This document shows, one piece after another, positions 1 to 63,508 of a stretch of 64,000 nt of DNA. The stretch lies in NCBI RefSeq assembly GCF_044324875.1, contig NZ_CP172185.1. One strand, given 5' to 3'. Numbering within the stretch: position 1 is the first letter of the stretch; every line of letters begins with the position of its first letter. The notes below the pieces were generated by a model. It was not told the DNA's origin, did not search any database, and saw only the letters and a list, made by a program, of their open reading frames with translations. The position numbers and the translations under genes are program-made. Source of the DNA: Escherichia coli (GTDB lineage: Bacteria; Pseudomonadota; Gammaproteobacteria; Enterobacterales; Enterobacteriaceae).

Positions 1-108
1 TATCCTGGCGAAGCCGCGTCAGTAACATATGCTGAATAGTGTTAGGCGTTAATTTTAGCCTGTTAATCAATACTATTAAGATTTATTAATCGCTTTAAGG
101 AGAAGATG

Positions 109-336
109 ATGAAAAAGACTGCCGCAATTATTTCTGCCTGTATGCTGACTTTTGCCCTGAGCGCCTGTTCCGGTTCGAACTATGTGATGCACACCAATGA
201 CGGACGTACCATCGTCTCTGACGGCAAACCACAGACTGATAACGATACCGGTATGATTTCGTATAAAGACGCTAATGGCAACAAACAGCAGATCAACCGT
301 ACTGACGTGAAAGAGATGGTCGAACTGGATCAGTAA
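109..336 (+). CDS. ygdI: small lipoprotein YgdI (DUF903 family)
   Basis: 75-76 aa ORF with lipoprotein-type signal (LSAC lipobox); AGGAG at 98-102; ATG at 106 is an alternative start; lies next to gcvB as in K-12. Confidence 0.8.
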
Positions 337-352
337 TTCGCGATCGCAAGGT

Positions 353-558
353 AAAAAAAAGCACCGCAATTAGGCGGTGCTACATTAATCACTATGGACA
401 GACAGGGTAAATGTACAGGAAGTGAAAAAAGGTAGCTTTGCTACCATGGTCTGAATCGCAGACCAATTGCAAACACAACAACACAACATCACAACCGTAA
501 GCCAAAAGTTCACCAGAACACGCATTCCGATAAAACTTTTCGTTCCGGCTCAGGAAGT
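353..558 (-). ncRNA. gcvB: GcvB small regulatory RNA
   Basis: Reverse complement of 353-558 reads ACTTCCTGAGCCGGAACGAAAAGTTTTATCGGAATGCGTGTTCTGGTG...GCACCGCCTAATTGCGGTGCTTTTTTTT, which I recognise as GcvB including the GU-rich region and terminal hairpin plus U-run; divergent from gcvA. Confidence 0.9.
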
Positions 559-686
559 GCCGCCACTATAGGTATTTGCTGGTAGAAGCTCAACGGACAA
601 TTTATAATGGCTCAGATTAAAAAAACTAATAGGTTACACAGTGTGATCTAATTGTTAAATTCATTTAACATCAAAGTTTAAAAGCC
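559..686. promoter_or_regulatory. divergent gcvA/gcvB promoter region
   Basis: AT-rich 128-bp spacer between the gcvB 5' end (558) and the gcvA start (687); role inferred from position. Confidence 0.5.
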
Positions 687-1604
687 ATGTCTAAACGATT
701 ACCACCGCTAAATGCCTTACGAGTTTTTGATGCCGCAGCACGCCATTTAAGTTTCACTCGCGCAGCAGAAGAGCTTTTTGTGACCCAGGCCGCAGTAAGT
801 CATCAAATCAAGTCTCTTGAGGATTTTTTGGGGCTAAAACTGTTCCGCCGCCGTAATCGTTCACTCCTGCTGACCGAGGAAGGGCAAAGCTATTTCCTCG
901 ATATCAAAGAGATATTTTCGCAATTAACCGAAGCGACGCGTAAACTCCAGGCCCGTAGCGCCAAGGGGGCGTTGACGGTCAGTTTACTCCCCAGTTTCGC
1001 CATTCATTGGTTGGTTCCGCGACTTTCCAGCTTTAATTCAGCTTATCCGGGAATTGACGTTCGAATCCAGGCGGTTGATCGTCAGGAAGATAAGCTGGCG
1101 GATGATGTTGATGTGGCGATATTTTATGGTCGGGGCAACTGGCCGGGGCTACGGGTGGAAAAACTTTACGCCGAATATTTATTGCCGGTGTGTTCGCCGC
1201 TACTGCTGACTGGCGAAAAACCCTTGAAGACCCCGGAAGATCTGGCTAAACATACGTTATTACATGATGCGTCACGCCGTGACTGGCAGACATATACTCG
1301 CCAATTGGGGTTAAATCATATCAACGTTCAGCAAGGGCCAATTTTTAGCCATAGCGCCATGGTGCTGCAAGCGGCTATTCACGGGCAGGGAGTGGCGCTG
1401 GCAAATAACGTGATGGCGCAATCTGAAATCGAGGCCGGACGTCTTGTTTGCCCGTTTAATGATGTTTTGGTCAGTAAAAATGCTTTTTATCTGGTTTGTC
1501 ATGACAGTCAGGCAGAACTGGGTAAAATAGCCGCCTTTCGCCAATGGATCCTGGCGAAAGCCGCTGCTGAACAAGAAAAATTCCGCTTTCGTTATGAACA
1601 ATAA
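687..1604 (+). CDS. gcvA: LysR-family glycine cleavage system transcriptional activator GcvA
   Basis: 305-aa ORF; N-terminal HTH MSKRLPPLNALRVFDAAARHLSFTRAAEELFVTQAAVSHQIKSLE matches GcvA. Confidence 0.95.
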   Translation: MSKRLPPLNALRVFDAAARHLSFTRAAEELFVTQAAVSHQIKSLEDFLGLKLFRRRNRSLLLTEEGQSYFLDIKEIFSQLTEATRKLQARSAKGALTVSLLPSFAIHWLVPRLSSFNSAYPGIDVRIQAVDRQEDKLADDVDVAIFYGRGNWPGLRVEKLYAEYLLPVCSPLLLTGEKPLKTPEDLAKHTLLHDASRRDWQTYTRQLGLNHINVQQGPIFSHSAMVLQAAIHGQGVALANNVMAQSEIEAGRLVCPFNDVLVSKNAFYLVCHDSQAELGKIAAFRQWILAKAAAEQEKFRFRYEQ

Positions 1605-1622
1605 TTTACGTAGGGTACGACC

Positions 1623-2018
1623 ATGACCAGCCGTTTTATGCTGATTTTCGCCGCCATTAGCGGCTTCATTTTTGTGGCTCTGGGCGCTTTTGGCGCGCAT
1701 GTGTTAAGTAAAACCATGGGGGCCGTTGAGATGGGCTGGATCCAGACCGGTCTCGAATACCAGGCGTTCCACACGCTGGCGATCTTAGGTCTGGCGGTGG
1801 CAATGCAGCGTCGCATCAGTATCTGGTTTTACTGGAGTAGCGTTTTCCTCGCGTTAGGCACGGTGCTGTTCAGCGGCAGCCTTTATTGCCTGGCACTGTC
1901 CCATCTGCGTTTGTGGGCGTTTGTCACTCCGGTTGGCGGCGTGAGCTTCCTTGCGGGCTGGGCGTTAATGTTAGTTGGTGCTATCCGTTTAAAACGCAAG
2001 GGCGTAAGTCATGAATAA
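1623..2018 (+). CDS. ygdD: DUF423 inner-membrane protein YgdD
   Basis: 131-aa hydrophobic ORF; overlaps the rlmM start by 8 bp; synteny. Confidence 0.85.
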
Positions 2019-3111
2019 GGTTGTATTGCTGTGCCGTCCGGGCTTTGAAAAAGAGTGCGCCGCAGAAATTACCGATAAAGCCGGCCAGCGGGAAATTTTC
2101 GGTTTTGCCCGCGTGAAAGAGAATGCGGGTTATGTGATTTATGAATGTTATCAACCTGATGATGGCGATAAGTTAATCCGTGAGCTGCCGTTCAGTTCAT
2201 TAATTTTTGCCCGCCAGTGGTTTGTAGTGGGGGAACTCCTGCAGCATTTGCCGCCAGAAGATCGTATTACTCCCATTGTCGGCATGTTACAGGGCGTAGT
2301 AGAGAAGGGCGGTGAACTGCGTGTTGAAGTTGCCGATACCAACGAAAGCAAAGAGTTGCTGAAATTCTGCCGTAAATTCACCGTGCCGCTACGCGCTGCC
2401 TTGCGCGATGCGGGTGTGCTGGCGAACTATGAAACGCCGAAGCGTCCGGTTGTGCATGTATTCTTTATTGCACCAGGCTGCTGCTATACCGGTTACTCAT
2501 ACAGCAACAATAATTCGCCGTTCTATATGGGCATTCCGCGCCTGAAATTTCCGGCAGATGCGCCGAGTCGTTCCACGCTCAAACTGGAAGAGGCATTTCA
2601 TGTGTTTATTCCTGCGGATGAGTGGGATGAACGCCTGGCGAACGGGATGTGGGCGGTGGATTTAGGCGCTTGCCCAGGCGGCTGGACCTACCAACTGGTG
2701 AAGCGCAACATGTGGGTTTATTCCGTCGACAACGGCCCGATGGCGCAAAGTCTGATGGATACCGGACAGGTGACGTGGCTGCGGGAAGACGGTTTCAAAT
2801 TCCGTCCGACACGCAGCAATATCTCCTGGATGGTATGCGATATGGTTGAAAAACCGGCGAAAGTTGCGGCATTGATGGCGCAGTGGCTGGTTAATGGCTG
2901 GTGCCGTGAAACCATTTTCAACCTCAAACTGCCGATGAAAAAACGCTACGAAGAAGTGTCACACAATCTGGCGTATATTCAGGCACAGCTTGATGAACAT
3001 GGCATAAATGCTCAGATCCAGGCGCGGCAGTTGTATCACGATCGCGAAGAAGTGACGGTGCACGTCCGCCGTATCTGGGCTGCGGTGGGTGGTCGTCGCG
3101 ACGAGCGATAA
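2011..3111 (+). CDS. rlmM: 23S rRNA 2'-O-ribose C2498 methyltransferase RlmM
   Basis: 366-aa ORF beginning [16 protein letters not shown]; length and synteny match RlmM (YgdE). Confidence 0.9.
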
Positions 3112-3154
3112 CAGGCAAGGCCGGGGCGTCGTCTCCGGCCTGCTACCCTTTCCG

Positions 3155-3886
3155 TCAGGCTGTTACCAAAGAAGTTGCAACCTGGCGCTCATCAGAAATA
3201 ATGTGCGTTACCTCATCCAGATGCCCGATGCGGGCTTCCCCTGAACGATTAAATTTACTTTTATCAATCAATAACAACGATTGCGCGGCGCGTTTTAATA
3301 GCATTGATTTGTAATCAGCGTTGATGGCATTGGAGTCCCACAGTGCGCCGCTGCTATCGATCCCTTCACAAGAAAAAATAAACAGATCGATTTCCAGCGA
3401 TTTAAGTTGAGAAATCAGCGAGGGATTGACGTAACAGCCATATTTGCGCTCAAGTGTGCCGCCGGAACTGATCAGTTGAATGCGTTCGCGTTTACCGAGT
3501 TCATGGCAAATCGGATGGCTATTGGTGAAGACCTGGATGTTGATGTCAGGCAACTGGCGTGCCAGATACCAGCAGGTTGAACTTGCGTCTAAGGCTATTA
3601 CCATCCCTTCTTCAATCCACGCGAGCGCCTCGCGCGCGATATCTGCTTTATGCGCATAATGGCTTTTCAGCCGGATGTGAAAGGGATCGCCACTGTCTTG
3701 ATTTTGACGGTGGATATATTTAGCGCGCCCATGATTGCGCAGAATTTTACCCTGCGTCTGTAATTCATTGAGATCGCGACGAATGGTTTCTTTACTGACC
3801 TTTAGCTGTTCAGAGAGAGCTTCCGTGGTCAGGCTGGTATGGTTCAGCAGCAGGTCGACTATCGCTTGCTGGCGTGCCGCTTTCAT
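3155..3886 (-). CDS. fucR: DeoR-family L-fucose operon activator FucR
   Basis: ORF runs to 3895 (MKNMKAARQQ...); K-12 FucR begins MKAARQQAIVDLLLNHTSL, so start at 3886 is preferred; DeoR HTH plus sugar-binding domain. Confidence 0.9.
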   Translation of the reverse strand: MKAARQQAIVDLLLNHTSLTTEALSEQLKVSKETIRRDLNELQTQGKILRNHGRAKYIHRQNQDSGDPFHIRLKSHYAHKADIAREALAWIEEGMVIALDASSTCWYLARQLPDINIQVFTNSHPICHELGKRERIQLISSGGTLERKYGCYVNPSLISQLKSLEIDLFIFSCEGIDSSGALWDSNAINADYKSMLLKRAAQSLLLIDKSKFNRSGEARIGHLDEVTHIISDERQVATSLVTA

Positions 3887-11407: not shown

Positions 11408-11440
11408 GCCGGATGCGACGCTAGCTGCGTCTTATCCGGC
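11408..11440. repeat. REP element between convergent fucO and xni
   Basis: GCCGGATGCGACGCTAGCTGCGTCTTATCCGGC imperfect palindrome. Confidence 0.7.
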
Positions 11441-11493
11441 GTATAAGTTCATTAAATTCAATGTGTTGATAATCGTTTGCATCCGGCACGCCG

Positions 11494-25257: not shown

Positions 25258-25331
25258 GACAGAAAACCAAAACCGGCTTCATAAGAAGTCGGTTTGAGAT
25301 TACTGACGAAGTGGTTTACGGGGCCGGTTTT

Positions 25332-25433
25332 CCCCCTCGCCCTTTCAGGGAGAGGGGCGGGGTGAGGGTAATCATTCGCACTTGCGTTGGCCTGTTCCCC
25401 TCACCCTAACCCTCTCCCCGGAGGGGCGAGGGG
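25332..25433. repeat. GC-rich composite palindromic repeat between gudD and barA
   Basis: Two ~37-bp units in inverted orientation (25332-25368 and 25397-25433), each internally palindromic (CCCCTCGCCC...GGGTGAGGG type). Confidence 0.6.
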
Positions 25434-25497
25434 ACTGTCTGTGCTGCTCCCAGCATTGGCATTGGACGGAACCTATTTTGACTCGACAAGACGTCCA

Positions 25498-28310: not shown

Positions 28311-29612
28311 ATGGCGCAATTCTACTCTGCAAAACGACGCACGACGACGCGTCAGATCATAACTGTTTCAGTCAACGACCTCGACTCTTTTGGTCAGGGC
28401 GTGGCGCGACATAACGGCAAAGCGTTATTTATTCCTGGATTACTGCCACAGGAAAACGCGGAAGTTACTGTTACTGAAGATAAAAAACAGTATGCCCGCG
28501 CTAAAGTCGTGCGCCGGTTAAGCGATAGCCCGGAACGCGAAACGCCACGCTGCCCTCATTTTGGCGTATGCGGTGGCTGTCAGCAACAACACGCCAGCGT
28601 GGATTTACAGCAGCGAAGCAAAAGTGCGGCACTCGCCCGATTAATGAAACACGAAGTCTCTGAAGTGATCGCCGATGTTCCCTGGGGCTATCGCCGTCGC
28701 GCGCGTTTAAGTTTGAACTACTTACCGAAAACACAGCAACTTCAGATGGGGTTTCGCAAAGCGGGCTCCAGTGACATTGTCGACGTTAAACAATGCCCCA
28801 TTTTAGTGCCCCAACTTGAAGCATTGCTGCCCAAAGTCAGGGCATGCCTGGACAGCTTACAAGCTATGCGCCATCTTGGTCATGTTGAACTGGTACAGGC
28901 AACCAGCGGCACGCTGATGATTTTGCGCCATACCGCACCGCTAAGTTCGGCTGATCGCGAAAAACTGGAACGCTTTTCGCATTCTGAAGGCCTGGATCTG
29001 TATCTCGCCCCCGATAGTGAGATACTCGAAACCGTCGCTGGTGAGATGCCCTGGTATGACTCAAACAGGTTGCGCTTAACTTTTAGCCCGCGCGATTTTA
29101 TTCAGGTCAATGCGGGTGTGAACCAAAAAATGGTAGCGCGTGCGTTGGAATGGCTGGATGTGCAACCTGAAGATCGCGTACTGGATTTGTTCTGCGGTAT
29201 GGGCAACTTTACACTGCCATTAGCGACACAAGCTGCCAGTGTGGTGGGTGTAGAAGGTGTTCCGGCGCTGGTGGAAAAAGGCCAGCAGAATGCGCGTCTT
29301 AATGGCTTACACAATGTGACGTTTTATCACGAAAATCTTGAAGAAGATGTCACAAAGCAGCCGTGGGCGAAAAACGGCTTCGATAAAGTGTTGCTGGACC
29401 CGGCGCGAGCAGGTGCCGCAGGTGTTATGCAGCAAATTATAAAACTGGAACCTATTCGTATAGTTTATGTATCCTGTAACCCTGCAACGCTGGCTCGGGA
29501 TAGCGAAGCGTTATTAAAAGCAGGATATACCATTGCGCGACTGGCGATGCTGGATATGTTCCCACACACGGGACATCTGGAATCGATGGTACTTTTCTCG
29601 CGCGTTAAATAG
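28311..29612 (+). CDS. rlmD: 23S rRNA (uracil1939-C5)-methyltransferase RlmD (RumA)
   Basis: 433-aa ORF with TRAM domain, Fe-S cysteines and SAM-MTase domain. Confidence 0.9.
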
Positions 29613-29659: not shown

Positions 29660-31894
29660 ATGGTTGCGGTAAGAAGTGCACATATCAATAAGGCTGGTGA
29701 ATTTGATCCGGAAAAATGGATCGCAAGTCTGGGTATTACCAGCCAGAAGTCGTGTGAGTGCTTAGCCGAAACCTGGGCGTATTGTCTGCAACAGACGCAG
29801 GGGCATCCGGATGCCAGTCTGTTATTGTGGCGTGGTGTTGAGATGGTGGAGATCCTCTCGACATTAAGTATGGACATTGACACGCTGCGGGCGGCGCTGC
29901 TGTTCCCTCTGGCGGATGCCAACGTAGTCAGCGAAGATGTGCTGCGTGAGAGCGTCGGTAAGTCGGTCGTTAACCTTATTCACGGCGTGCGTGATATGGC
30001 GGCGATCCGCCAGCTGAAAGCGACGCATACCGATTCTGTTTCCTCCGAACAGGTCGATAACGTTCGCCGGATGTTATTGGCGATGGTCGATGATTTTCGC
30101 TGCGTGGTCATCAAACTGGCAGAGCGTATTGCTCATCTGCGCGAAGTAAAAGACGCGCCGGAAGATGAACGCGTACTGGCGGCAAAAGAGTGCACCAATA
30201 TCTACGCGCCGTTGGCGAACCGTCTTGGGATTGGACAACTGAAATGGGAGCTGGAAGATTACTGCTTCCGTTATCTCCACCCGACCGAATACAAACGCAT
30301 CGCAAAACTGCTGCATGAACGCCGTCTCGACCGCGAACACTATATCGAAGAGTTTGTCGGCCATCTGCGCGCTGAGATGAAAGCTGAAGGCGTTAAAGCT
30401 GAAGTGTATGGTCGTCCGAAACACATCTACAGCATCTGGCGCAAAATGCAGAAAAAGAACCTCGCCTTCGATGAGCTGTTTGATGTGCGTGCGGTACGTA
30501 TTGTCGCCGAGCGTTTACAGGATTGTTATGCCGCACTGGGGATAGTGCACACTCACTATCGCCACCTGCCGGATGAGTTTGACGATTACGTCGCTAACCC
30601 GAAACCAAACGGTTATCAGTCTATTCATACCGTGGTTCTGGGACCAGGTGGCAAAACCGTTGAGATCCAAATCCGCACTAAACAGATGCATGAAGATGCA
30701 GAGTTGGGTGTTGCTGCGCACTGGAAATATAAAGAGGGCGCGGCAGCTGGCGGCGCACGTTCGGGACATGAAGACCGGATTGCCTGGCTGCGTAAACTGA
30801 TTGCGTGGCAGGAAGAGATGGCTGATTCCGGCGAAATGCTCGACGAAGTACGCAGCCAGGTATTTGACGACCGGGTGTATGTCTTTACGCCGAAAGGTGA
30901 TGTCATTGATTTGCCTGCGGGATCAACACCGCTGGACTTCGCTTACCACATCCACAGTGATGTCGGACACCGCTGCATCGGGGCAAAAATTGGCGGGCGC
31001 ATTGTGCCGTTCACCTACCAGCTGCAGATGGGCGACCAGATTGAAATTATCACCCAGAAACAGCCGAACCCCAGCCGTGACTGGTTAAACCCAAACCTCG
31101 GTTACGTCACAACCAGCCGTGGGCGTTCGAAAATTCACGCCTGGTTCCGTAAACAGGACCGTGACAAAAACGTTCTGGCTGGGCGGCAAATCCTTGACGA
31201 CGAGCTGGAACATCTGGGGATCAGCCTGAAAGAAGCAGAAAAACATCTGCTGCCGCGTTACAACTTCAATGATGTCGACGAGTTGCTGGCGGCGATTGGT
31301 GGCGGGGATATCCGTCTCAATCAGATGGTGAACTTCCTGCAATCGCAATTTAATAAGCCGAGTGCCGAAGAGCAGGACGCCGCCGCGCTGAAGCAACTTC
31401 AGCAAAAAAGCTACACGCCGCAAAACCGCAGTAAAGATAACGGTCGTGTGGTGGTTGAAGGTGTCGGTAACCTGATGCACCACATCGCGCGCTGCTGCCA
31501 GCCGATTCCTGGAGATGAGATTGTCGGCTTCATTACCCAGGGACGCGGTATTTCAGTACACCGCGCCGATTGCGAACAACTGGCGGAACTGCGCTCCCAT
31601 GCGCCAGAACGCATTGTTGACGCGGTATGGGGTGAGAGCTACTCCGCCGGATATTCGCTGGTGGTCCGCGTGGTGGCTAATGATCGTAGTGGGTTGTTAC
31701 GTGATATCACGACCATTCTTGCCAACGAGAAGGTGAACGTACTTGGCGTTGCCAGCCGTAGCGACACCAAACAGCAACTGGCGACCATCGACATGACCAT
31801 TGAGATTTACAACCTGCAAGTGCTGGGGCGCGTGCTGGGTAAACTCAACCAGGTGCCGGATGTTATCGACGCGCGTCGGTTGCACGGGAGTTAG
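29660..31894 (+). CDS. relA: GTP pyrophosphokinase RelA, (p)ppGpp synthetase I
   Basis: 744-aa ORF ending DVIDARRLHGS. Confidence 0.95.
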   Translation: MVAVRSAHINKAGEFDPEKWIASLGITSQKSCECLAETWAYCLQQTQGHPDASLLLWRGVEMVEILSTLSMDIDTLRAALLFPLADANVVSEDVLRESVGKSVVNLIHGVRDMAAIRQLKATHTDSVSSEQVDNVRRMLLAMVDDFRCVVIKLAERIAHLREVKDAPEDERVLAAKECTNIYAPLANRLGIGQLKWELEDYCFRYLHPTEYKRIAKLLHERRLDREHYIEEFVGHLRAEMKAEGVKAEVYGRPKHIYSIWRKMQKKNLAFDELFDVRAVRIVAERLQDCYAALGIVHTHYRHLPDEFDDYVANPKPNGYQSIHTVVLGPGGKTVEIQIRTKQMHEDAELGVAAHWKYKEGAAAGGARSGHEDRIAWLRKLIAWQEEMADSGEMLDEVRSQVFDDRVYVFTPKGDVIDLPAGSTPLDFAYHIHSDVGHRCIGAKIGGRIVPFTYQLQMGDQIEIITQKQPNPSRDWLNPNLGYVTTSRGRSKIHAWFRKQDRDKNVLAGRQILDDELEHLGISLKEAEKHLLPRYNFNDVDELLAAIGGGDIRLNQMVNFLQSQFNKPSAEEQDAAALKQLQQKSYTPQNRSKDNGRVVVEGVGNLMHHIARCCQPIPGDEIVGFITQGRGISVHRADCEQLAELRSHAPERIVDAVWGESYSAGYSLVVRVVANDRSGLLRDITTILANEKVNVLGVASRSDTKQQLATIDMTIEIYNLQVLGRVLGKLNQVPDVIDARRLHGS

Positions 31895-31989
31895 TCTTAC
31901 ATAGCTGGATATGGCGTCAGCCGTATCCAGCGATATCTTTTACTCGAAGGTATTACACCTGACAGACCCGCAATTTTCAGGACAATTCA

Positions 31990-32781
31990 ATGAATCAAAT
32001 CGACCGTTTGCTCACTATTATGCAGCGCCTGCGCGACCCGGAAAACGGCTGCCCGTGGGATAAAGAGCAGACATTTGCCACCATTGCGCCTTACACCCTT
32101 GAAGAAACCTACGAAGTGCTGGACGCCATCGCCCGTGAAGATTTTGACGATCTTCGCGGTGAACTGGGCGATCTGCTATTCCAGGTGGTGTTTTACGCGC
32201 AAATGGCTCAGGAAGAAGGGCGCTTTGACTTTAATGATATTTGCGCTGCTATTAGCGATAAATTAGAGCGTCGCCATCCGCATGTTTTTGCTGACAGTTC
32301 TGCCGAAAACAGTAGTGAAGTGCTTACCCGTTGGGAGCAAATCAAAACCGAAGAGCGCGCGCAGAAAGCGCAGCATTCAGCGCTGGACGATATTCCTCGT
32401 AGTTTACCGGCTTTAATGCGTGCGCAAAAAATCCAGAAACGTTGCGCCAACGTTGGTTTCGACTGGACGACGCTTGGTCCGGTAGTCGATAAAGTCTACG
32501 AAGAGATCGACGAGGTGATGTACGAGGCGCGGCAGGCTGTTATCGACCAGGCTAAACTGGAGGAGGAAATGGGTGACCTGCTGTTTGCCACGGTCAACAT
32601 GGCACGCCATTTAGGGACAAAAGCAGAGATTGCACTACAAAAAGCCAATGAAAAATTCGAGCGCCGTTTTCGCGAAGTGGAGCGTATTGTTGCCGCGCGT
32701 GGACTGGAAATGACAGGTGTTGACCTCGAAACAATGGAAGAAGTCTGGCAACAGGTAAAACGGCAGGAAATTGATCTCTAA
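31990..32781 (+). CDS. mazG: nucleoside triphosphate pyrophosphohydrolase MazG
   Basis: 263-aa ORF beginning MNQIDRLLTIMQRLRDPENGCPWDKEQTF. Confidence 0.95.
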   Translation: MNQIDRLLTIMQRLRDPENGCPWDKEQTFATIAPYTLEETYEVLDAIAREDFDDLRGELGDLLFQVVFYAQMAQEEGRFDFNDICAAISDKLERRHPHVFADSSAENSSEVLTRWEQIKTEERAQKAQHSALDDIPRSLPALMRAQKIQKRCANVGFDWTTLGPVVDKVYEEIDEVMYEARQAVIDQAKLEEEMGDLLFATVNMARHLGTKAEIALQKANEKFERRFREVERIVAARGLEMTGVDLETMEEVWQQVKRQEIDL

Positions 32782-32993: not shown

Positions 32994-34646
<1,653 letters not shown>

Positions 34647-40845: not shown

Positions 40846-41118
40846 GAGTTCCCCGCGCCAGCGGGGATAAACCGCTTCATCTGTCGGGCTAACTGGACAA
40901 AGAAACGAGTTCCCCGCGCCAGCGGGGATAAACCGTCGGTTTGACATCAAAGAAGCCATCAATCAGGGAGTTCCCCGCGCCAGCGGGGATAAACCGGTCT
41001 GGCCATAGGAACAAAGAAATTTGTCTTTGAGTTCCCCACGTCAGCGGGGATAAACCGGACACAGAGCGCCGCTATAGCGCCTATGCCAAGAGTTCCCCGC
41101 GCCAGCGGGGATAAACCA
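40846..41118 (+). CRISPR. type I-E CRISPR array (CRISPR2.1 position), 5 repeats and 4 spacers
   Basis: 29-bp repeats GAGTTCCCCGCGCCAGCGGGGATAAACCG at 40846, 40907, 40968, 41029 (variant CCCCACGTCAG) and 41090 (terminal, ends A); 32-bp spacers at 40875-40906, 40936-40967, 40997-41028, 41058-41089. Confidence 0.95.
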
Positions 41119-50211: not shown

Positions 50212-50325
50212 CGTGCTGCCGGATGATCCTGCCTACGGTTCTGGGCTGGGGACTTGTAAGCCTGATAAGACGCGTCAAGCGTCGTATCAGGCGCTGAATG
50301 TCGGATGTGGCGTGCAGCCTACAAA
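50212..50325. repeat. BIME-like cluster of REP elements between convergent ygcQ and ygcP
   Basis: Canonical REP GCCTGATAAGACGCGTCAAGCGTCGTATCAGGC at 50260-50292, flanked by partial GCCGGATG...CCTAC units. Confidence 0.75.
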
Positions 50326-56742: not shown

Positions 56743-56762
56743 CCATCAGCCCGGTCTTGTAG

Positions 56763-56794
56763 GCCTGATAAGACGCGTGAGCGTCGCATCAGGC
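56763..56794. repeat. REP element between cysI and cysH
   Basis: GCCTGATAAGACGCGTGAGCGTCGCATCAGGC palindrome. Confidence 0.8.
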
Positions 56795-56815: not shown

Positions 56816-57550
56816 ATGTCCAAACTCGATCTAAACGCCCTGAACGAACTGCCGAAGGTAGATCGCATTCTGGCGCTGGCAGAAACTAACGCCGAACTGG
56901 AAAAACTGGATGCTGAAGGCCGCGTTGCCTGGGCGCTGGATAATCTGCCCGGTGAATATGTACTTTCTTCCAGTTTCGGCATTCAGGCGGCGGTGAGCCT
57001 GCATCTGGTGAATCAGATTCACCCGGATATCCCGGTGATCCTGACCGATACGGGTTATCTGTTCCCGGAAACCTACCGCTTTATTGACGAGTTAACGGAC
57101 AAACTCAAGCTCAACCTGAAAGTGTACCGCGCTACCGAAAGCGCCGCCTGGCAGGAAGCGCGCTACGGCAAACTGTGGGAGCAGGGTGTTGAAGGCATTG
57201 AAAAGTACAATGACATCAACAAAGTCGAACCGATGAACCGGGCGCTGAAAGAACTGAATGCGCAAACGTGGTTTGCTGGCCTGCGCCGCGAACAATCCGG
57301 CAGTCGCGCCAATTTACCGGTGCTGGCAATTCAGCGTGGCGTATTTAAAGTGCTGCCGATTATCGACTGGGATAACCGAACGATATATCAGTATCTGCAA
57401 AAACATGGCCTGAAATATCATCCATTATGGGACGAAGGATATTTATCCGTCGGTGATACCCATACAACCCGTAAATGGGAACCCGGCATGGCGGAAGAAG
57501 AAACGCGTTTCTTTGGCTTAAAAAGGGAATGTGGGCTGCACGAAGGGTAA
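56816..57550 (+). CDS. cysH: phosphoadenosine phosphosulfate (PAPS) reductase CysH
   Basis: 244-aa form [23 protein letters not shown] with GAGGA RBS; ORF-track start at 56663 runs through the REP and is rejected. Confidence 0.95.
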
Positions 57551-57968: not shown

Positions 57969-58319
57969 CCACCACGCGGGGGTAAAACCCCGCGTATTGA
58001 ATTGTGATGGTTTGGTCTCCTGCACCCTTTTTTAATTTATATTGTTTATGTGAATATTATGCCTATGTTTATTATTCATATATATTACGGATGAAAATTA
58101 TTTGATTATTCATAATGTGCAAAATGGCATCTGAATCGATCGCAGTTTGGCATTCGAATCGATCATGATTTGGCATCCATCTCCGATCACAGTTTGGCAT
58201 CACAATCGATCACGATTTGGCATGCTTCCGATCATTGATTGGCATCCTGCCAGTCACTCCGGGAATTAACTCTTTTCACCACAGTCTCCATTGCCGTGTT
58301 TAAACCAGTGGAGACGTCA

Positions 58320-59885
58320 ATGTCCAGAAAGAGAAAATCCAGGAGCACTATGGAAACCTGTTTTAAGATCCTTCAGCTCAAGTTCGACAAGAAGCTGACT
58401 AACCGTTGTATCGGACTGACGTTACACATCAGCGCCTCAACCGTTTTTGAGGTTCTTGCCCGCTTCAAAGCCTCTTCTCTGTCATGGCCATTACCTGCTG
58501 ATATATCCCATGACACGCTGGAGAAACTCATTTTTCCGCCCAAAGACACCTTTGCATCAGAGCTTGTAATGCCTGACATGTTGTACTTCGATACGGAAAT
58601 GAGAAAACCAGGTGTGACGCGGCAACTGTTGTGGATGGAATACAAGGCACAGGCGGGTAACAAAGCGATGGGATACTCGCACTTCTGCCGTTGCTACCGG
58701 GAGTGGAAAAAAACGCGACGTCTCTCCATGCGCCAGGAGCATCGTGCCGGCGAAAAGCTTTTTATCGACTTCTGTGGTCCTACGGTTCCTGTTATTAATC
58801 CGGACACCGGTGAGATACGCCGCGTGGCAATCTTCGTGGCCGTAATGGGGGCGTCCAACTATACCTACGTTGAAGCGTGCGAAGGTCAGGACATGATGTC
58901 ATGGTTAAATGCCCACAGCCGTTGCCTGACCTTCCTGGGCGGCGTACCGAAGCTGCTCATCCCCGATAACCTCAGAAGCGCAGTGAAAAAGGCCGATCGA
59001 TATGAGCCTGTCATCAACGACAGTTATCAGGCACTGGCTGAGCACTATGGCACGGTTATCATCCCGGCCCGACCACGCAAACCTAAAGATAAACCAAAAG
59101 CAGAAAACGGCGTCCTCATCGTTGAACGATGGCTTCTTGCCCGCATCCGTAATGAAACCTTCCACACGCTCAGGGCGCTGAATGCGCGCCTTAGGGAGTT
59201 ACTGACAGACATGAATAACCGGCCAATGAAGGGGTACGGCAATCAAACCCGTGCAGAACGCTTCCGCATACTGGATGCGCCAGCACTCTCTCCGCTGCCT
59301 CTGGCACCTTATGAATACACGGAATACAAAGCTGTGAAGGTTGGCCCTGACTACCACGTTGAATATGCCCGTCACTGGTACTCCGTTCCACACGAACTGG
59401 TCGGTCAGCGTCTGTCACTGAAGGCGGGGCAGTCGGTGGTACAGCTCTGGCACAAGGGGCAGTGTGTGGCGCAACATCCGCGCAGCACACATGAATATAA
59501 ACACACAACCAATCCGCTTCACATGCCAGAGCGCCACCGGCAGCACGGGACATGGACACCGGAACGCCTGATCGAGCAGGGAAAACGTACGGGCCCGTCC
59601 ACAGGCCGGGTGGTTGAATCCATGCTGAAGGCAAAACCCCATCCGGAACTGGCTTATCGTGCAGTTCTGGGGCTGCTGGCACTTCAGAAAAAATACGGCC
59701 CGGAACGGCTGGAAAAGGCCTGTTACGTTGCCCTGCACTATAACGCCCCTGACAGACGCTTTATCGACAATCTGCTGCGTCACCATCGGGAGAACCTGGA
59801 GCTTCCATTATCCCGCCAGGGCGAACAACATCCGGCATATGCTTCAGAGCATGAAAACCTGCGTGGTCCGGGCTACTACCACTGA
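58320..59885 (+). CDS. istA: IS21-family transposase IstA
   Basis: N-terminal HTH and DDE integrase core; start at MSRKRKSRS (58320) with GGAG RBS preferred over the ORF-track start 58239. Confidence 0.8.
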   Translation: MSRKRKSRSTMETCFKILQLKFDKKLTNRCIGLTLHISASTVFEVLARFKASSLSWPLPADISHDTLEKLIFPPKDTFASELVMPDMLYFDTEMRKPGVTRQLLWMEYKAQAGNKAMGYSHFCRCYREWKKTRRLSMRQEHRAGEKLFIDFCGPTVPVINPDTGEIRRVAIFVAVMGASNYTYVEACEGQDMMSWLNAHSRCLTFLGGVPKLLIPDNLRSAVKKADRYEPVINDSYQALAEHYGTVIIPARPRKPKDKPKAENGVLIVERWLLARIRNETFHTLRALNARLRELLTDMNNRPMKGYGNQTRAERFRILDAPALSPLPLAPYEYTEYKAVKVGPDYHVEYARHWYSVPHELVGQRLSLKAGQSVVQLWHKGQCVAQHPRSTHEYKHTTNPLHMPERHRQHGTWTPERLIEQGKRTGPSTGRVVESMLKAKPHPELAYRAVLGLLALQKKYGPERLEKACYVALHYNAPDRRFIDNLLRHHRENLELPLSRQGEQHPAYASEHENLRGPGYYH

Positions 59886-59901
59886 CAGAAGGAACAACAG
59901 T

Positions 59902-60657
59902 ATGAGTGATAACCTGTTAAACAAACTGACCCAACTGAAACTCCCGGCGATGGCCGGGAGCCTGATACGGCAGCGGGAAACGCCTCAGACCTACGACGAA
60001 CTGTCGTTCGAGGAAAGGCTGACGCTGCTGGTTGATGACGAGCTTCTGAGCAGGGAAAACAGCCGTGTGGCACGGTTGAGAAAAAATGCCGGCCTGAAAT
60101 ACCAGGCAACACCGGAAGGGCTGCGCTATCCGGCCTCAAGAGGTCTGCGGGCTGAACAGATGAGAGAACTGCTGAACGGCCACTACATAACCCACAGGAA
60201 AAACCTGCTGATAACCGGTCCGACAGGATGTGGCAAGAGCTGGATAGCCAATGCGCTGGGCGAACAGGCATGTCGACAGAAACACAGCGTCCGGTACTGT
60301 AGAACCGGGCGATTACTGGAACAACTGGCTCAGGGACGTGTTGATGGCAGCTGGCTGAAATATCTGAAACAGTTGCAAAAAATACAGGTTCTAATCCTGG
60401 ACGATCTGGGGCTGGAACAGTTAAGTAACGCCCAGTGTAATGACCTTCTGGAGCTCATAGAGGATCGTTACGGACAAAGCAGCACGATAGTGGTAAGCCA
60501 GTTCCCGGTAGATAAATGGCATGGTCTGATGGAGAACCCAACAACAGCAGATGCCATCCTGGACAGACTGGTACATAACTCACACCGAGTGGTCCTTCAG
60601 GGAGAGTCACTGAGGAAAAATCCCCCGGTAGTGGAAAGCAGCGAAAAAACGCGTTAA
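59902..60657 (+). CDS. istB: IS21-family ATP-binding helper IstB
   Basis: 251-aa form MSDNLLNKL... with Walker A GPTGCGKSW and Walker B LILDDLG; ORF-track start 59659 overlaps istA. Confidence 0.85.
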   Translation: MSDNLLNKLTQLKLPAMAGSLIRQRETPQTYDELSFEERLTLLVDDELLSRENSRVARLRKNAGLKYQATPEGLRYPASRGLRAEQMRELLNGHYITHRKNLLITGPTGCGKSWIANALGEQACRQKHSVRYCRTGRLLEQLAQGRVDGSWLKYLKQLQKIQVLILDDLGLEQLSNAQCNDLLELIEDRYGQSSTIVVSQFPVDKWHGLMENPTTADAILDRLVHNSHRVVLQGESLRKNPPVVESSEKTR

Positions 60658-60808: not shown

Positions 60809-63508
60809 ATGCGTAAATATCCTTTAAGTTTACTGAAGGATAAAAATATTGTGACTTTTTTTGATTTCTGGGGAAAAACCCGACGCGGCGAGAAAGACGG
60901 GGGCGACGACTATCACCTTCTTTGCTGGCATTCGCTGGATGTAGCCGCGATGGGCTATTTAATGGTTAAAAGCAATTGCTTCGGGCTGACTGACTATTTT
61001 CGTCAACTAGGTTTCGCTGATACGGAGCAGGCAGCACAATTTTTCGCCTGGCTATTGTGCTGGCACGATACTGGAAAATTTGCCCGCTCTTTTCAGCAAC
61101 TTTACCTGCACCCACAACTCAAGGTTCCGGAAGGCGCAAGAAAGAATTACGAAAAGATCTCTCATTCAACGCTGGGCTACTGGCTGTGGCATCATTATTT
61201 AAGTGAATACGAAGAATTGCTTCCTTCATCTTCACTCTCTCCGCGCAAACTTAAACGGGTGATGGAGATGTGGATGCCCATAACTACCGGGCATCATGGT
61301 CGCCCGCCTGACCGTATTGATGAACTGGATAATTTTCTGCCTGAAGACAAAGCTGCCGCGCGAGATTTTCTTCTTGAAATCAAACCACTGTTTCCGCTCA
61401 TAGAGATCCCCGCATTCTGGGATGATGATGAGGGCATTGAACTTATAAAACACCTTTCCTGGTATATCTCTGCAACCGTCGTGCTCGCAGACTGGACGGG
61501 TTCGTCAACGCGATTTTTTCCACGCGTCGCACACCCAATGGATATTAAAGGTTACTGGCAGAAAACTTTAGTTCAGGCTCAAAACGCCTTAACCGTCTTT
61601 CCTCTAAAAGCAAAAGTCGCGCCTTTCACCGGAATTAATACGCTGTTTCCTTTTATTGAGAATCCGACACCGTTACAGCAAAAGGTGCTGGATCTGGATA
61701 TCAGCCAGCCAGGGCCACAGTTATTTATTCTGGAAGATGTGACTGGCGCAGGTAAAACGGAAGCGGCGCTTATCCTGGCGCACAGGTTGATGGCTGCGGG
61801 TAAAGCGCAGGGTTTGTTTTTTGGCCTGCCAACAATGGCAACGGCCAATGCCATGTACGATCGACTGGTCAAAACCTGGCTTGCTTTCTATTCGCCAGAG
61901 TCCCGCCCCAGCCTGGTGCTGGCACACAGTGCCCGAACATTAATGGACCGCTTTAATGAATCACTCTGGTCCGGTGATTTAGTCGGGTCAGAAGAACCGG
62001 ATGAACAAACGTTCAGTCAGGGATGTGCGGCCTGGTTTGCCGACAGTAACAAGAAGGCGCTACTGGCTGAAATTGGCGTCGGCACGCTGGATCAGGCGAT
62101 GATGGCTGTGATGCCGTTCAAACATAATAATCTGCGGCTTCTGGGACTGAGTAACAAAATCCTGCTGGCTGATGAGATCCATGCCTGTGACGCTTACATG
62201 TCATGCATTCTTGAAGGGCTGATCGAGCGGCAGGCGCGTGGCGGAAACAGCGTCATTTTGCTTTCTGCCACGTTATCTCAACAGCAGTGCGACAAACTCG
62301 TTGCTGCCTTTGCGCGTGGTACAGAGGGCCAGCAAGAAGCTCCGTTCCTGGAAAAGGATGATTACCCCTGGCTGACGCACGTTACGAAATCCGATGTGCA
62401 TTCACACCGGGTAGCGACGCGCAAAGACGTTGAGCGTAGCGTGAGCGTGGGTTGGCTTCATAGCGAACAAGAATGTATTGCGCGTATCGAATCGGCAGTA
62501 AGTCAGGGGAAATGCATCGCCTGGATCCGGAATTCTGTCGATGACGCTATTAAGGTTTATCGTCAGTTGCTTGCCCGCGGCGTCATTCCTGCTTCCAGCC
62601 TTTCTCTGTTTCATAGCCGCTTTGCTTTTAGCGATCGCCAGCGAATTGAAACGGAAACGCTGGCACGCTTCGGTAAAGAAGATAGCTCACAGCGTGCCGG
62701 AAAAGTCCTCATTTGTACTCAGGTCTTAGAGTCGAGCGTTGATTGCGATATGGACGAAATGATTTCCGACCTGGCCCCTGTTGATTTGCTGATCCAGCGA
62801 GCGGGGCGATTACAGCGGCATATCCGCGATATTAATGGTCAGTTAAAGCGTGACGGAAAAGACGAGCGTTCCCCTCCTGAATTGCTGATTCTGGCCCCCG
62901 TCTGGGACGACGCTCCAGGTGACGAATGGTTCGGCAGTGCCATGCGTAACAGTGCATATGTCTATCCCGATCATGGACGAATCTGGCTGACGCAGCGTGT
63001 ACTGCGTGAGCAAGGCGCTATTCAAATGCCACACGCAGCCCGCCTTCTTATTGAATCAGTCTACGGTGAGGACGTGGTAATGCCGGAAGGATTTGCCCGC
63101 AGCGAGCAGGAGCAAGTGGGCAAATATTACTGCGATCGCGCAATGGCTAAAAAGTTTGTGCTGAACTTCAGGCCTGGCTATGCCGCCAATATCAACGATT
63201 ACCTTCCGGAAAAGCTGTCGACACGTCTGGCGGAGGAGTCTGTTTCCCTGTGGCTGGCTACCTGTATTGCCAGTGTGGTGAAGCCTTATGCCAACGGTGC
63301 TCACGCATGGGAAATGAGCGTTGTCAGAGTGCGTCGAAGCTGGTGGAAAAAACATCGGGATGAGTTTTCTTTACTGGAAGGGGAAGCGTTCAGGCAGTGG
63401 TGCATTGAACAGCGGAAAGATCCGGAGATGGCAAACGTGATTTTAGTTACCGATGACGAAAGTTGCGGGTATTCGGCTATGGAAGGATTGACTGGCAAGG
63501 TTGGTTGA
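60809..63508 (+). CDS. cas3: CRISPR-associated helicase/nuclease Cas3 (type I-E, non-K-12 sequence variant)
   Basis: 899-aa ORF: N-terminal HD domain (HSLDVAAMGYL, CWHDTGK), DEAD/DEAH helicase (Walker A GAGKTEA, LADEIHA); clearly diverged from the K-12 Cas3 sequence I recall. Confidence 0.85.
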   Translation: MRKYPLSLLKDKNIVTFFDFWGKTRRGEKDGGDDYHLLCWHSLDVAAMGYLMVKSNCFGLTDYFRQLGFADTEQAAQFFAWLLCWHDTGKFARSFQQLYLHPQLKVPEGARKNYEKISHSTLGYWLWHHYLSEYEELLPSSSLSPRKLKRVMEMWMPITTGHHGRPPDRIDELDNFLPEDKAAARDFLLEIKPLFPLIEIPAFWDDDEGIELIKHLSWYISATVVLADWTGSSTRFFPRVAHPMDIKGYWQKTLVQAQNALTVFPLKAKVAPFTGINTLFPFIENPTPLQQKVLDLDISQPGPQLFILEDVTGAGKTEAALILAHRLMAAGKAQGLFFGLPTMATANAMYDRLVKTWLAFYSPESRPSLVLAHSARTLMDRFNESLWSGDLVGSEEPDEQTFSQGCAAWFADSNKKALLAEIGVGTLDQAMMAVMPFKHNNLRLLGLSNKILLADEIHACDAYMSCILEGLIERQARGGNSVILLSATLSQQQCDKLVAAFARGTEGQQEAPFLEKDDYPWLTHVTKSDVHSHRVATRKDVERSVSVGWLHSEQECIARIESAVSQGKCIAWIRNSVDDAIKVYRQLLARGVIPASSLSLFHSRFAFSDRQRIETETLARFGKEDSSQRAGKVLICTQVLESSVDCDMDEMISDLAPVDLLIQRAGRLQRHIRDINGQLKRDGKDERSPPELLILAPVWDDAPGDEWFGSAMRNSAYVYPDHGRIWLTQRVLREQGAIQMPHAARLLIESVYGEDVVMPEGFARSEQEQVGKYYCDRAMAKKFVLNFRPGYAANINDYLPEKLSTRLAEESVSLWLATCIASVVKPYANGAHAWEMSVVRVRRSWWKKHRDEFSLLEGEAFRQWCIEQRKDPEMANVILVTDDESCGYSAMEGLTGKVG

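Follow-up and report, generated by a model that had tools for sequence, protein, structure and literature searches.

The window, by which we mean the whole 64-kb stretch of Escherichia coli DNA analyzed here, contains in succession the genes rlmD (28311–29612), relA (29660–31894, + strand), mazG (31990–32781, + strand), and pyrG (33009–34646). Assignment of rlmD and pyrG rests on the list of open reading frames and on full-length matches to NCBIfam equivalogs. The relA product, a 744-aa GTP diphosphokinase, matches the NCBIfam equivalog NF008124 over its full length with 1676.8 bits, and the 263-aa product of mazG, a nucleoside triphosphate pyrophosphohydrolase, scores 416.6 bits against TIGR00444 and 369.3 bits against NF007113. 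As read from the ORF list and the sequence, relA closes with a TAG stop codon at 31892–31894 and the mazG ATG lies at 31990, leaving a spacer of exactly 95 bp (31895–31989, + strand) that represents the unoccupied, mazEF-less allele of the locus. A preliminary description of this DNA had claimed that only 95 bp separate the two genes and that neither mazE nor mazF lies between them. The first claim was confirmed by the ORF list and the NCBIfam gene calls and the second by tblastn, in which K-12 MazE and K-12 MazF, each searched against the whole 64-kb window, gave no match at E ≤ 1e-3. The spacer is too short for a MazE ORF (82 aa in K-12, PF04014), and by the same search an ORF for the MazF/PemK endoribonuclease (111 aa in K-12, PF02452) is missing from the window. 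In K-12 (strain ER2796), the same flanking genes enclose the chpA locus, an interval of 731 bp rather than 95 bp that contains the mazE promoter, mazE, and mazF; the order relA-mazE-mazF-mazG, which the preliminary description had given for K-12, is the annotated one.

The most conspicuous feature of the spacer is a hairpin at 31904–31931 (+ strand), GCTGGATATGGC-GTCA-GCCGTATCCAGC, detected by a consensus scan, by folding, and by alignment to outgroup sequences. Its 28 nucleotides form a stem of 12 pairs (seven G-C, one G.T) closed by a 4-nt loop, and it is followed by GATATCTTTT and a T-run at 31936–31941. The palindrome reported in the preliminary description is therefore real, although it lies one base to the right of the position claimed (about 31903–31930). 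The 105-nt hairpin region folds with a predicted energy of −37 kcal/mol (z = −5.5), and none of 200 shuffled sequences folded as well. The exact palindrome is single-copy in the 64-kb window, where no chance matches are expected. In the consensus scan, the hairpin and its T-run are terminator-like in silico, but the number of such sites in the region (one observed, 0.8 ± 1.1 expected from shuffling) is not above chance. A second, small hairpin, GATATCTTT-TACTC-GAAGGTATT, is predicted at 31932–31954 (+ strand) from the minimum free energy structure and the alignment to outgroups.

The remainder of the spacer (31956–31989, + strand) is a mazG leader common to both alleles of the locus and identical to K-12 at 34 of 34 positions. 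It includes a Shine-Dalgarno-like AGGA at 31979–31982, 7 nt ahead of the mazG ATG, within the sequence TTCAGGA, a ribosome-binding region for mazG that is conserved in outgroup spacers. Two candidate features were rejected. The sole promoter-like site in the scanned region, a σ70-like CTGACA-16-GACAAT at 31959–31986 matching 9 of 12 consensus positions, is not a credible mazG promoter because it ends 3 bp before the ATG. A 50-aa ORF at 31911–32063 begins within the hairpin and runs into mazG in a different reading frame; nothing in NCBIfam matches it, and it is considered spurious. An Rfam scan of 31600–32300 at E ≤ 1 returned no match, so no RNA family is recognized in the spacer.

The preliminary description had left open whether mazEF was lost or ancestrally absent, and had proposed an alignment to K-12 and a search for deletion scars. 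In the alignment, homology to K-12 breaks off after the relA stop codon and is found again over the 34 bp that precede the mazG ATG. A blastn-short comparison of the spacer with the K-12 interval gave a significant match confined to the mazG leader, and weak similarity may restart earlier, at an AGGT at 31948. The segment 31895–31955 (+ strand) is thus specific to this allele and is replaced in K-12-type strains by a mazEF cassette of ~697 bp; depending on where similarity is taken to restart, ~53–61 bp of the spacer, the hairpin included, have no counterpart in the K-12 interval. The search for scars was negative: the mazE promoter/operator palindrome is absent after the relA stop codon, the spacer shows no likeness to the first 697 bp of the K-12 interval, and no mazF remnants were found in it. 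These comparisons bear on the simplest account of the locus, in which a K-12-like relA-mazEF-mazG ancestor lost mazEF by deletion. That account draws on the presence of the cassette in K-12 and in 81% of complete genomes, but the ~53–61 bp of filler argue against it, since a deletion cannot create sequence that K-12 does not have. The two states of the locus are best read as alternative alleles, one bearing REP-like filler and the other the ~697-bp cassette.

To place the filler, relA-mazG spacers were taken from a MazG scan of GTDB species representatives, in which 80 loci were listed (E. fergusonii, E. marmotae, E. ruysiae, and E. whittamii are not by name among them). No mazE or mazF lies between relA and mazG at any of the 79 non-E. 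coli Enterobacterales species loci among those listed, and the gaps are mostly 43–175 bp. The spacers of Citrobacter, Klebsiella, and Salmonella are composed of REP/BIME elements, and the window hairpin aligns by position to the first REP of the Citrobacter and Klebsiella spacers. The bases flanking it are common to the window and these spacers (TAAT..GTAGGCCGGATAAGGCG..GCCGCCATCCGGCGAT(A/T)TC), and the aligned arms read ATA-GCTGGATATGGCG-TCAGCCGTATCCAGCGATATC in the window and GTAGGCCGGATAAGGCG-AAGCCGCCATCCGGCGATTTC in Citrobacter and Klebsiella. In a consensus fold of six versions, eight of ten pairs form in every sequence (seven of them invariant), and two pairs are kept through changes on both sides. 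Tentatively, the second predicted hairpin at 31932–31954 overlaps the region that aligns to the second REP of these spacers, which is inverted.

The hairpin resembles REP/BIME elements in that it is an imperfect palindrome lying outside genes, at a gene's 3' end and between two coding sequences, and in its positional orthology to the canonical REPs of Citrobacter and Klebsiella (GTAGGCCGGATAAGGCG...GCCGCCATCCGGC). It differs from them in having GCTGGATATGGCG, in reading ATAG rather than GTAG, and in forming a perfect 12-bp stem in place of the bulged REP stem. The outgroups share GTAG with a divergent Escherichia (NZ_JAATUR010000008.1, "E. coli" SCPM-O-B-8794), whose hairpin has the more REP-like form GTAGCCGGATACGGTG..CCGTATCCGGTG. 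This genome and a second divergent Escherichia labelled E. coli (CP089930.1, strain E69) also carry the 95-bp spacer; their identities to the window are 91.8% for relA and 90.9% for mazG in the former and 95.7% and 94.2% in the latter, values from which we infer that both are probably cryptic-clade Escherichia and not E. coli proper. Each arm of the window hairpin has three mismatches in 13 positions to the REP half-site GCCGGATGCGGCG, and at up to three mismatches the hairpin variant occurs once in the 64-kb window and so is not multi-copy there. A fuzzy search for the half-site at the same tolerance was very noisy, with dozens of matches within genes, and for this reason the REP call rests on the positional alignment to outgroup REPs. 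On that alignment, the hairpin can be described as a decayed REP element, although the assignment is imperfect. More canonical REP-like pairs (GCCGGATGCGACG ... CGTCTTATCCGGC and similar) occur in intergenic positions at 11408–11444, 50256–50292, and 56759–56794, showing that ordinary REPs are also present in this strain besides the decayed one after relA.

Because the spacer sequence is missing in K-12 and orthologous to outgroup REPs, an empty site of ancestral type is favored. We consider it highly probable that the spacer is the unoccupied allele of a known mazEF presence/absence polymorphism and retains pre-insertion enterobacterial sequence. Under this reading, the spacer would be made up of a decayed REP/BIME, represented by the hairpin and T-run, and, downstream of it, the conserved mazG leader with its ribosome-binding site. 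The ~697-bp cassette of K-12-type strains, comprising the mazE promoter, mazE, mazF, and a short tail, would have replaced the REP segment of ~53–61 bp, its bounds being the relA stop codon exactly and the last ~34–42 bp ahead of mazG.

Real loss of mazEF does occur in the genus, and E. albertii shows what it leaves behind. In the type strain NBRC 107761 (L006:2740–3000), the relA-mazG gap is 261 bp and contains no mazEF, yet in comparison with the K-12 cassette it keeps 27 of 30 positions of the mazE promoter palindrome, 15 of 15 of the mazF 3' coding end, and 64 of 71 of the post-mazF tail. REP/BIME elements fill its middle. By this likeness the gap in the type strain holds a degenerate mazEF cassette, whose junctions are those seen in E. 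coli. The window spacer carries no E. albertii-type scar. Thus, although the E. albertii case lends deletion a precedent, the window lacks the promoter-palindrome and mazF remnants that a loss of that kind left there, and its filler is orthologous to outgroup REPs. On the K-12 and outgroup comparisons, simple deletion is effectively refuted as the origin of the spacer, and we regard it as very improbable.

The frequency of the empty site was determined in 5,426 complete E. coli genomes with a 76-bp spacer probe (31885–31960), counting matches at 96–100% coverage and at least 97% identity. The empty-site spacer is present in 1,000 genomes (18.4%); 304 of these match the probe at 100% identity, the variant found in the window, and 696 with one or two differences, and O25:H4 strains are included. 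The K-12 cassette at ≥80% coverage was found in 4,416 of the 5,426 (81%), in every case on the chromosome and in none on a plasmid, bringing the empty and full-cassette counts together to 5,416. The cassette gave no match in 963 genomes and a partial match in 47, consistent with 1,000 empty sites, and in an evenly spaced ranking of matches the boundary between one-piece and two-piece matches fell at rank ~975–1,113, in agreement with that number. The same 95-bp gap is annotated by RefSeq in E. coli 042, 88-3493, and CUVET20-PYO1. The recurrence of the junction in 1,000 independent complete genomes and its annotation in these three strains render the idea that the locus was collapsed by an assembly or sequencing artefact, in favor of which nothing was counted, negligible. 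The exact K-12 MazF protein was found, in the 282 contigs read, at rlmD-relA-mazE-mazF-mazG-pyrG-eno in all ten distinct contexts listed; since every listed context is the relA-mazG locus, K-12-type mazEF has not been seen relocated.

No complete genome is identical to the window. Its nearest relatives, at 99.2% over 20 kb, are an O17 strain, E. coli 042 (a phylogroup D strain), THO-008, and KK19-02, the last two being among the genomes with a 100% match to the spacer probe. All of the closest complete genomes that were cross-checked, 042, THO-008, and KK19-02 included, are empty-site strains.

The absence of mazEF is a common strain difference and already known: many strains, UTI89 among them, lack mazEF according to Fraikin, Goormaghtigh & Van Melderen (2020, PMC7167474), who cite Pandey & Gerdes (2005) and Fiedoruk et al. 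(2015) for the mazEF-less arrangement. The UTI89-type arrangement is the same locus in the same state as in the window, with relA leading straight to mazG, and differs in nothing essential; the ST131-type spacer of CUVET20 differs from that of the window by three substitutions in 95 bp. A parallel is offered by the ccdO157 site between folA and apaH, at which, according to Mine et al. (2009) as relayed in PMC7167474, strains without the TA system have REP sequences. From that account, in both cases two core genes flank a chromosomal type II TA cassette in some strains but not in others, and REPs lie at the unoccupied site; ccdO157 belongs to another TA family and another locus. In the open-access literature we found nothing specific on a REP at relA-mazG or on mazEF in E. 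albertii. With PMC7167474 as the yardstick, the REP orthology, the E. albertii scar, the frequencies, and the tract boundary described below are small additions to a known finding.

Although the sequence of the empty allele appears ancestral, its history in this lineage may be less direct. A comparison of the window with E. coli 042 revealed ~1 difference per 100 bp from 25.5 kb to position 31900, within the spacer, and then only three differences over the following 5.5 kb, which cover mazG, pyrG, and eno and extend further, with the density rising again from 37435. The drop at 31900 places the end of a recombination tract within the spacer, where strand exchange would be expected to halt if it met heterologous sequence. 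In addition, the empty strain CUVET20-PYO1 and the mazEF-positive uropathogenic strain 536 are 99.5–99.7% identical in the flanks, which means that one allele has at some point given way to the other on an almost unchanged background. Both observations accord with an allelic replacement, in which a mazEF-positive ancestor regained the empty allele from an empty-site donor through the relA and mazG flanks, making the absence secondary. No switch is needed to account for the clade of the window, since its closest complete genomes, where cross-checked, are all empty-site, and a boundary at a heterologous site is expected anyway if the exchange partner differed there; moreover, the direction of exchange is unreadable from a single comparison. 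We therefore regard replacement as unlikely, though well ahead of simple deletion, and retain the pre-insertion reading of the spacer. The word "ancestral" here describes the sequence of the allele and not necessarily the history of the lineage, because the E. albertii scars show that the cassette is itself old; the empty allele may have reached this lineage by recombination instead of unbroken descent.

Several observations bear on the age of the polymorphism. Between K-12 and strain 536, the cassette is 98.1% identical and its flanks 97.5–98.1%, so cassette and core genes appear to have diverged together, as they would not after a recent transfer. Identity to K-12 is ~90% in the E. albertii remnants, and relA and mazG of E. 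albertii are 90–92% identical to those of the window. E. coli and E. albertii share the cassette junctions, in that the cassette starts right after the relA stop codon and its post-mazF tail runs through to mazG, which suggests that the cassette entered a BIME once, either before the two species split or with transfer across that split. The empty allele occurs in the putative cryptic-clade Escherichia and, to judge by named strains, in E. coli of phylogroup D and B2 types. We suggest, tentatively and at less than even confidence, that the mazEF cassette and the REP-bearing empty site are two old alleles that have long coexisted across Escherichia. Homologous recombination appears to shuffle the two alleles, with tracts ending at the heterology.

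Other genera carry different genes at this site. In Superficieibacter sp. 1612_C1 (L020:2065–3000), the relA-mazG gap encodes a ParD-family antitoxin (TIGR02606, 1.6e-24), adjoined in the toxin position by a 98-aa ORF that has no NCBIfam match and is ParE-like by eye only. S. electus (L018) has a 950-bp gap with a 112-aa hydrophobic-rich ORF of no family match. The 1,785-bp gap of Buttiauxella agrestis ATCC 33320 (L042:1212–2997) encodes the type VI secretion tube protein Hcp/TssD (TIGR03344, 3.4e-56); behind it lie two ORFs with no family match, one of 261 aa and a hydrophobic one of 109 aa, which are possibly an effector/immunity pair. With its parDE in Superficieibacter and its Hcp island in Buttiauxella, the relA-mazG site looks like a general insertion hotspot for small cassettes with selfish or competition functions. 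TA insertion loci have been described as plastic, and parDE has been reported in the relA-mazG region of Salmonella spp. (PMC7167474).

Elsewhere in the window, an IS21-family element lies between cysH and cas3 (58125–60657). It comprises an istA-like transposase (58239–59885; NF033546, 1.1e-84) and an IstB helper ATPase (59659–60657; NF038214, 2.2e-76), and is headed by 23-bp tandem repeats (58125–58246). Directly downstream is a type I-E cas3 of 899 aa (60809–63508; PADLOC Cas3e, 2.2e-287). Its NCBIfam equivalog score of 420.7 bits is below the cut-off of 569, marking it as a divergent Cas3 variant; the window stops short of the rest of the cas operon and of the CRISPR array. The locus used for comparison in E. 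coli 042 ends inside cysH, at about window position 56998, and two stretches before that point gave no megablast alignment to 042: 25278–25481 (gudD-barA intergenic, by 042 coordinates) and 40874–40965 (downstream of queE, by 042 coordinates).

REP elements in general are established as leaky terminators and/or as barriers to 3' exonucleases. The state of the locus would bear on the expression of mazG. K-12 mazG is described in the literature as co-transcribed from the mazEF promoter, which does not exist in the window. Fraikin et al. (2020, PMC7167474) describe relA and mazG in mazEF-less strains as forming an undisturbed bicistronic operon. In the absence of the mazEF promoter, mazG would be transcribed with relA as a bicistronic unit, and in empty-site strains it would be expressed only with relA or from an unmapped promoter. 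The preliminary description had proposed the palindrome as the relA terminator. The resemblance stands, as a pattern match, but the published view of an undisturbed operon implies that termination after relA would be at most partial. The REP-derived hairpin and T-run might act as a 3'-end stabilizer or 3' exonuclease barrier, as a leaky intrinsic terminator, or as both, and a leaky hairpin would set the ratio of relA to mazG. These terminator-like or stabilizing roles of 31904–31941 are suggested by the pattern scan and the folding energy.

The preliminary description had cautioned that the state of the locus affects how stress-response results from K-12 transfer to this strain, and for mazEF-dependent results this holds: they do not carry over here, nor to the ~18% of genomes that are likewise empty. 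The results concerned are stress-induced mRNA cleavage, the disputed programmed-cell-death and persistence phenotypes, and the control of mazG by the mazEF promoter. This affects roughly one in five E. coli, a point of which TA researchers are already aware. The evolutionary value of the locus is modest and lies in the pre-insertion sequence, the displaced REP/BIME segment, the loss in E. albertii, and the cassettes that other genera carry at the site. If the two alleles are indeed old and have long coexisted, nature would at this locus have been running a long-term experiment on whether selection favors a chromosomal TA system, opposes it, or is indifferent to it.
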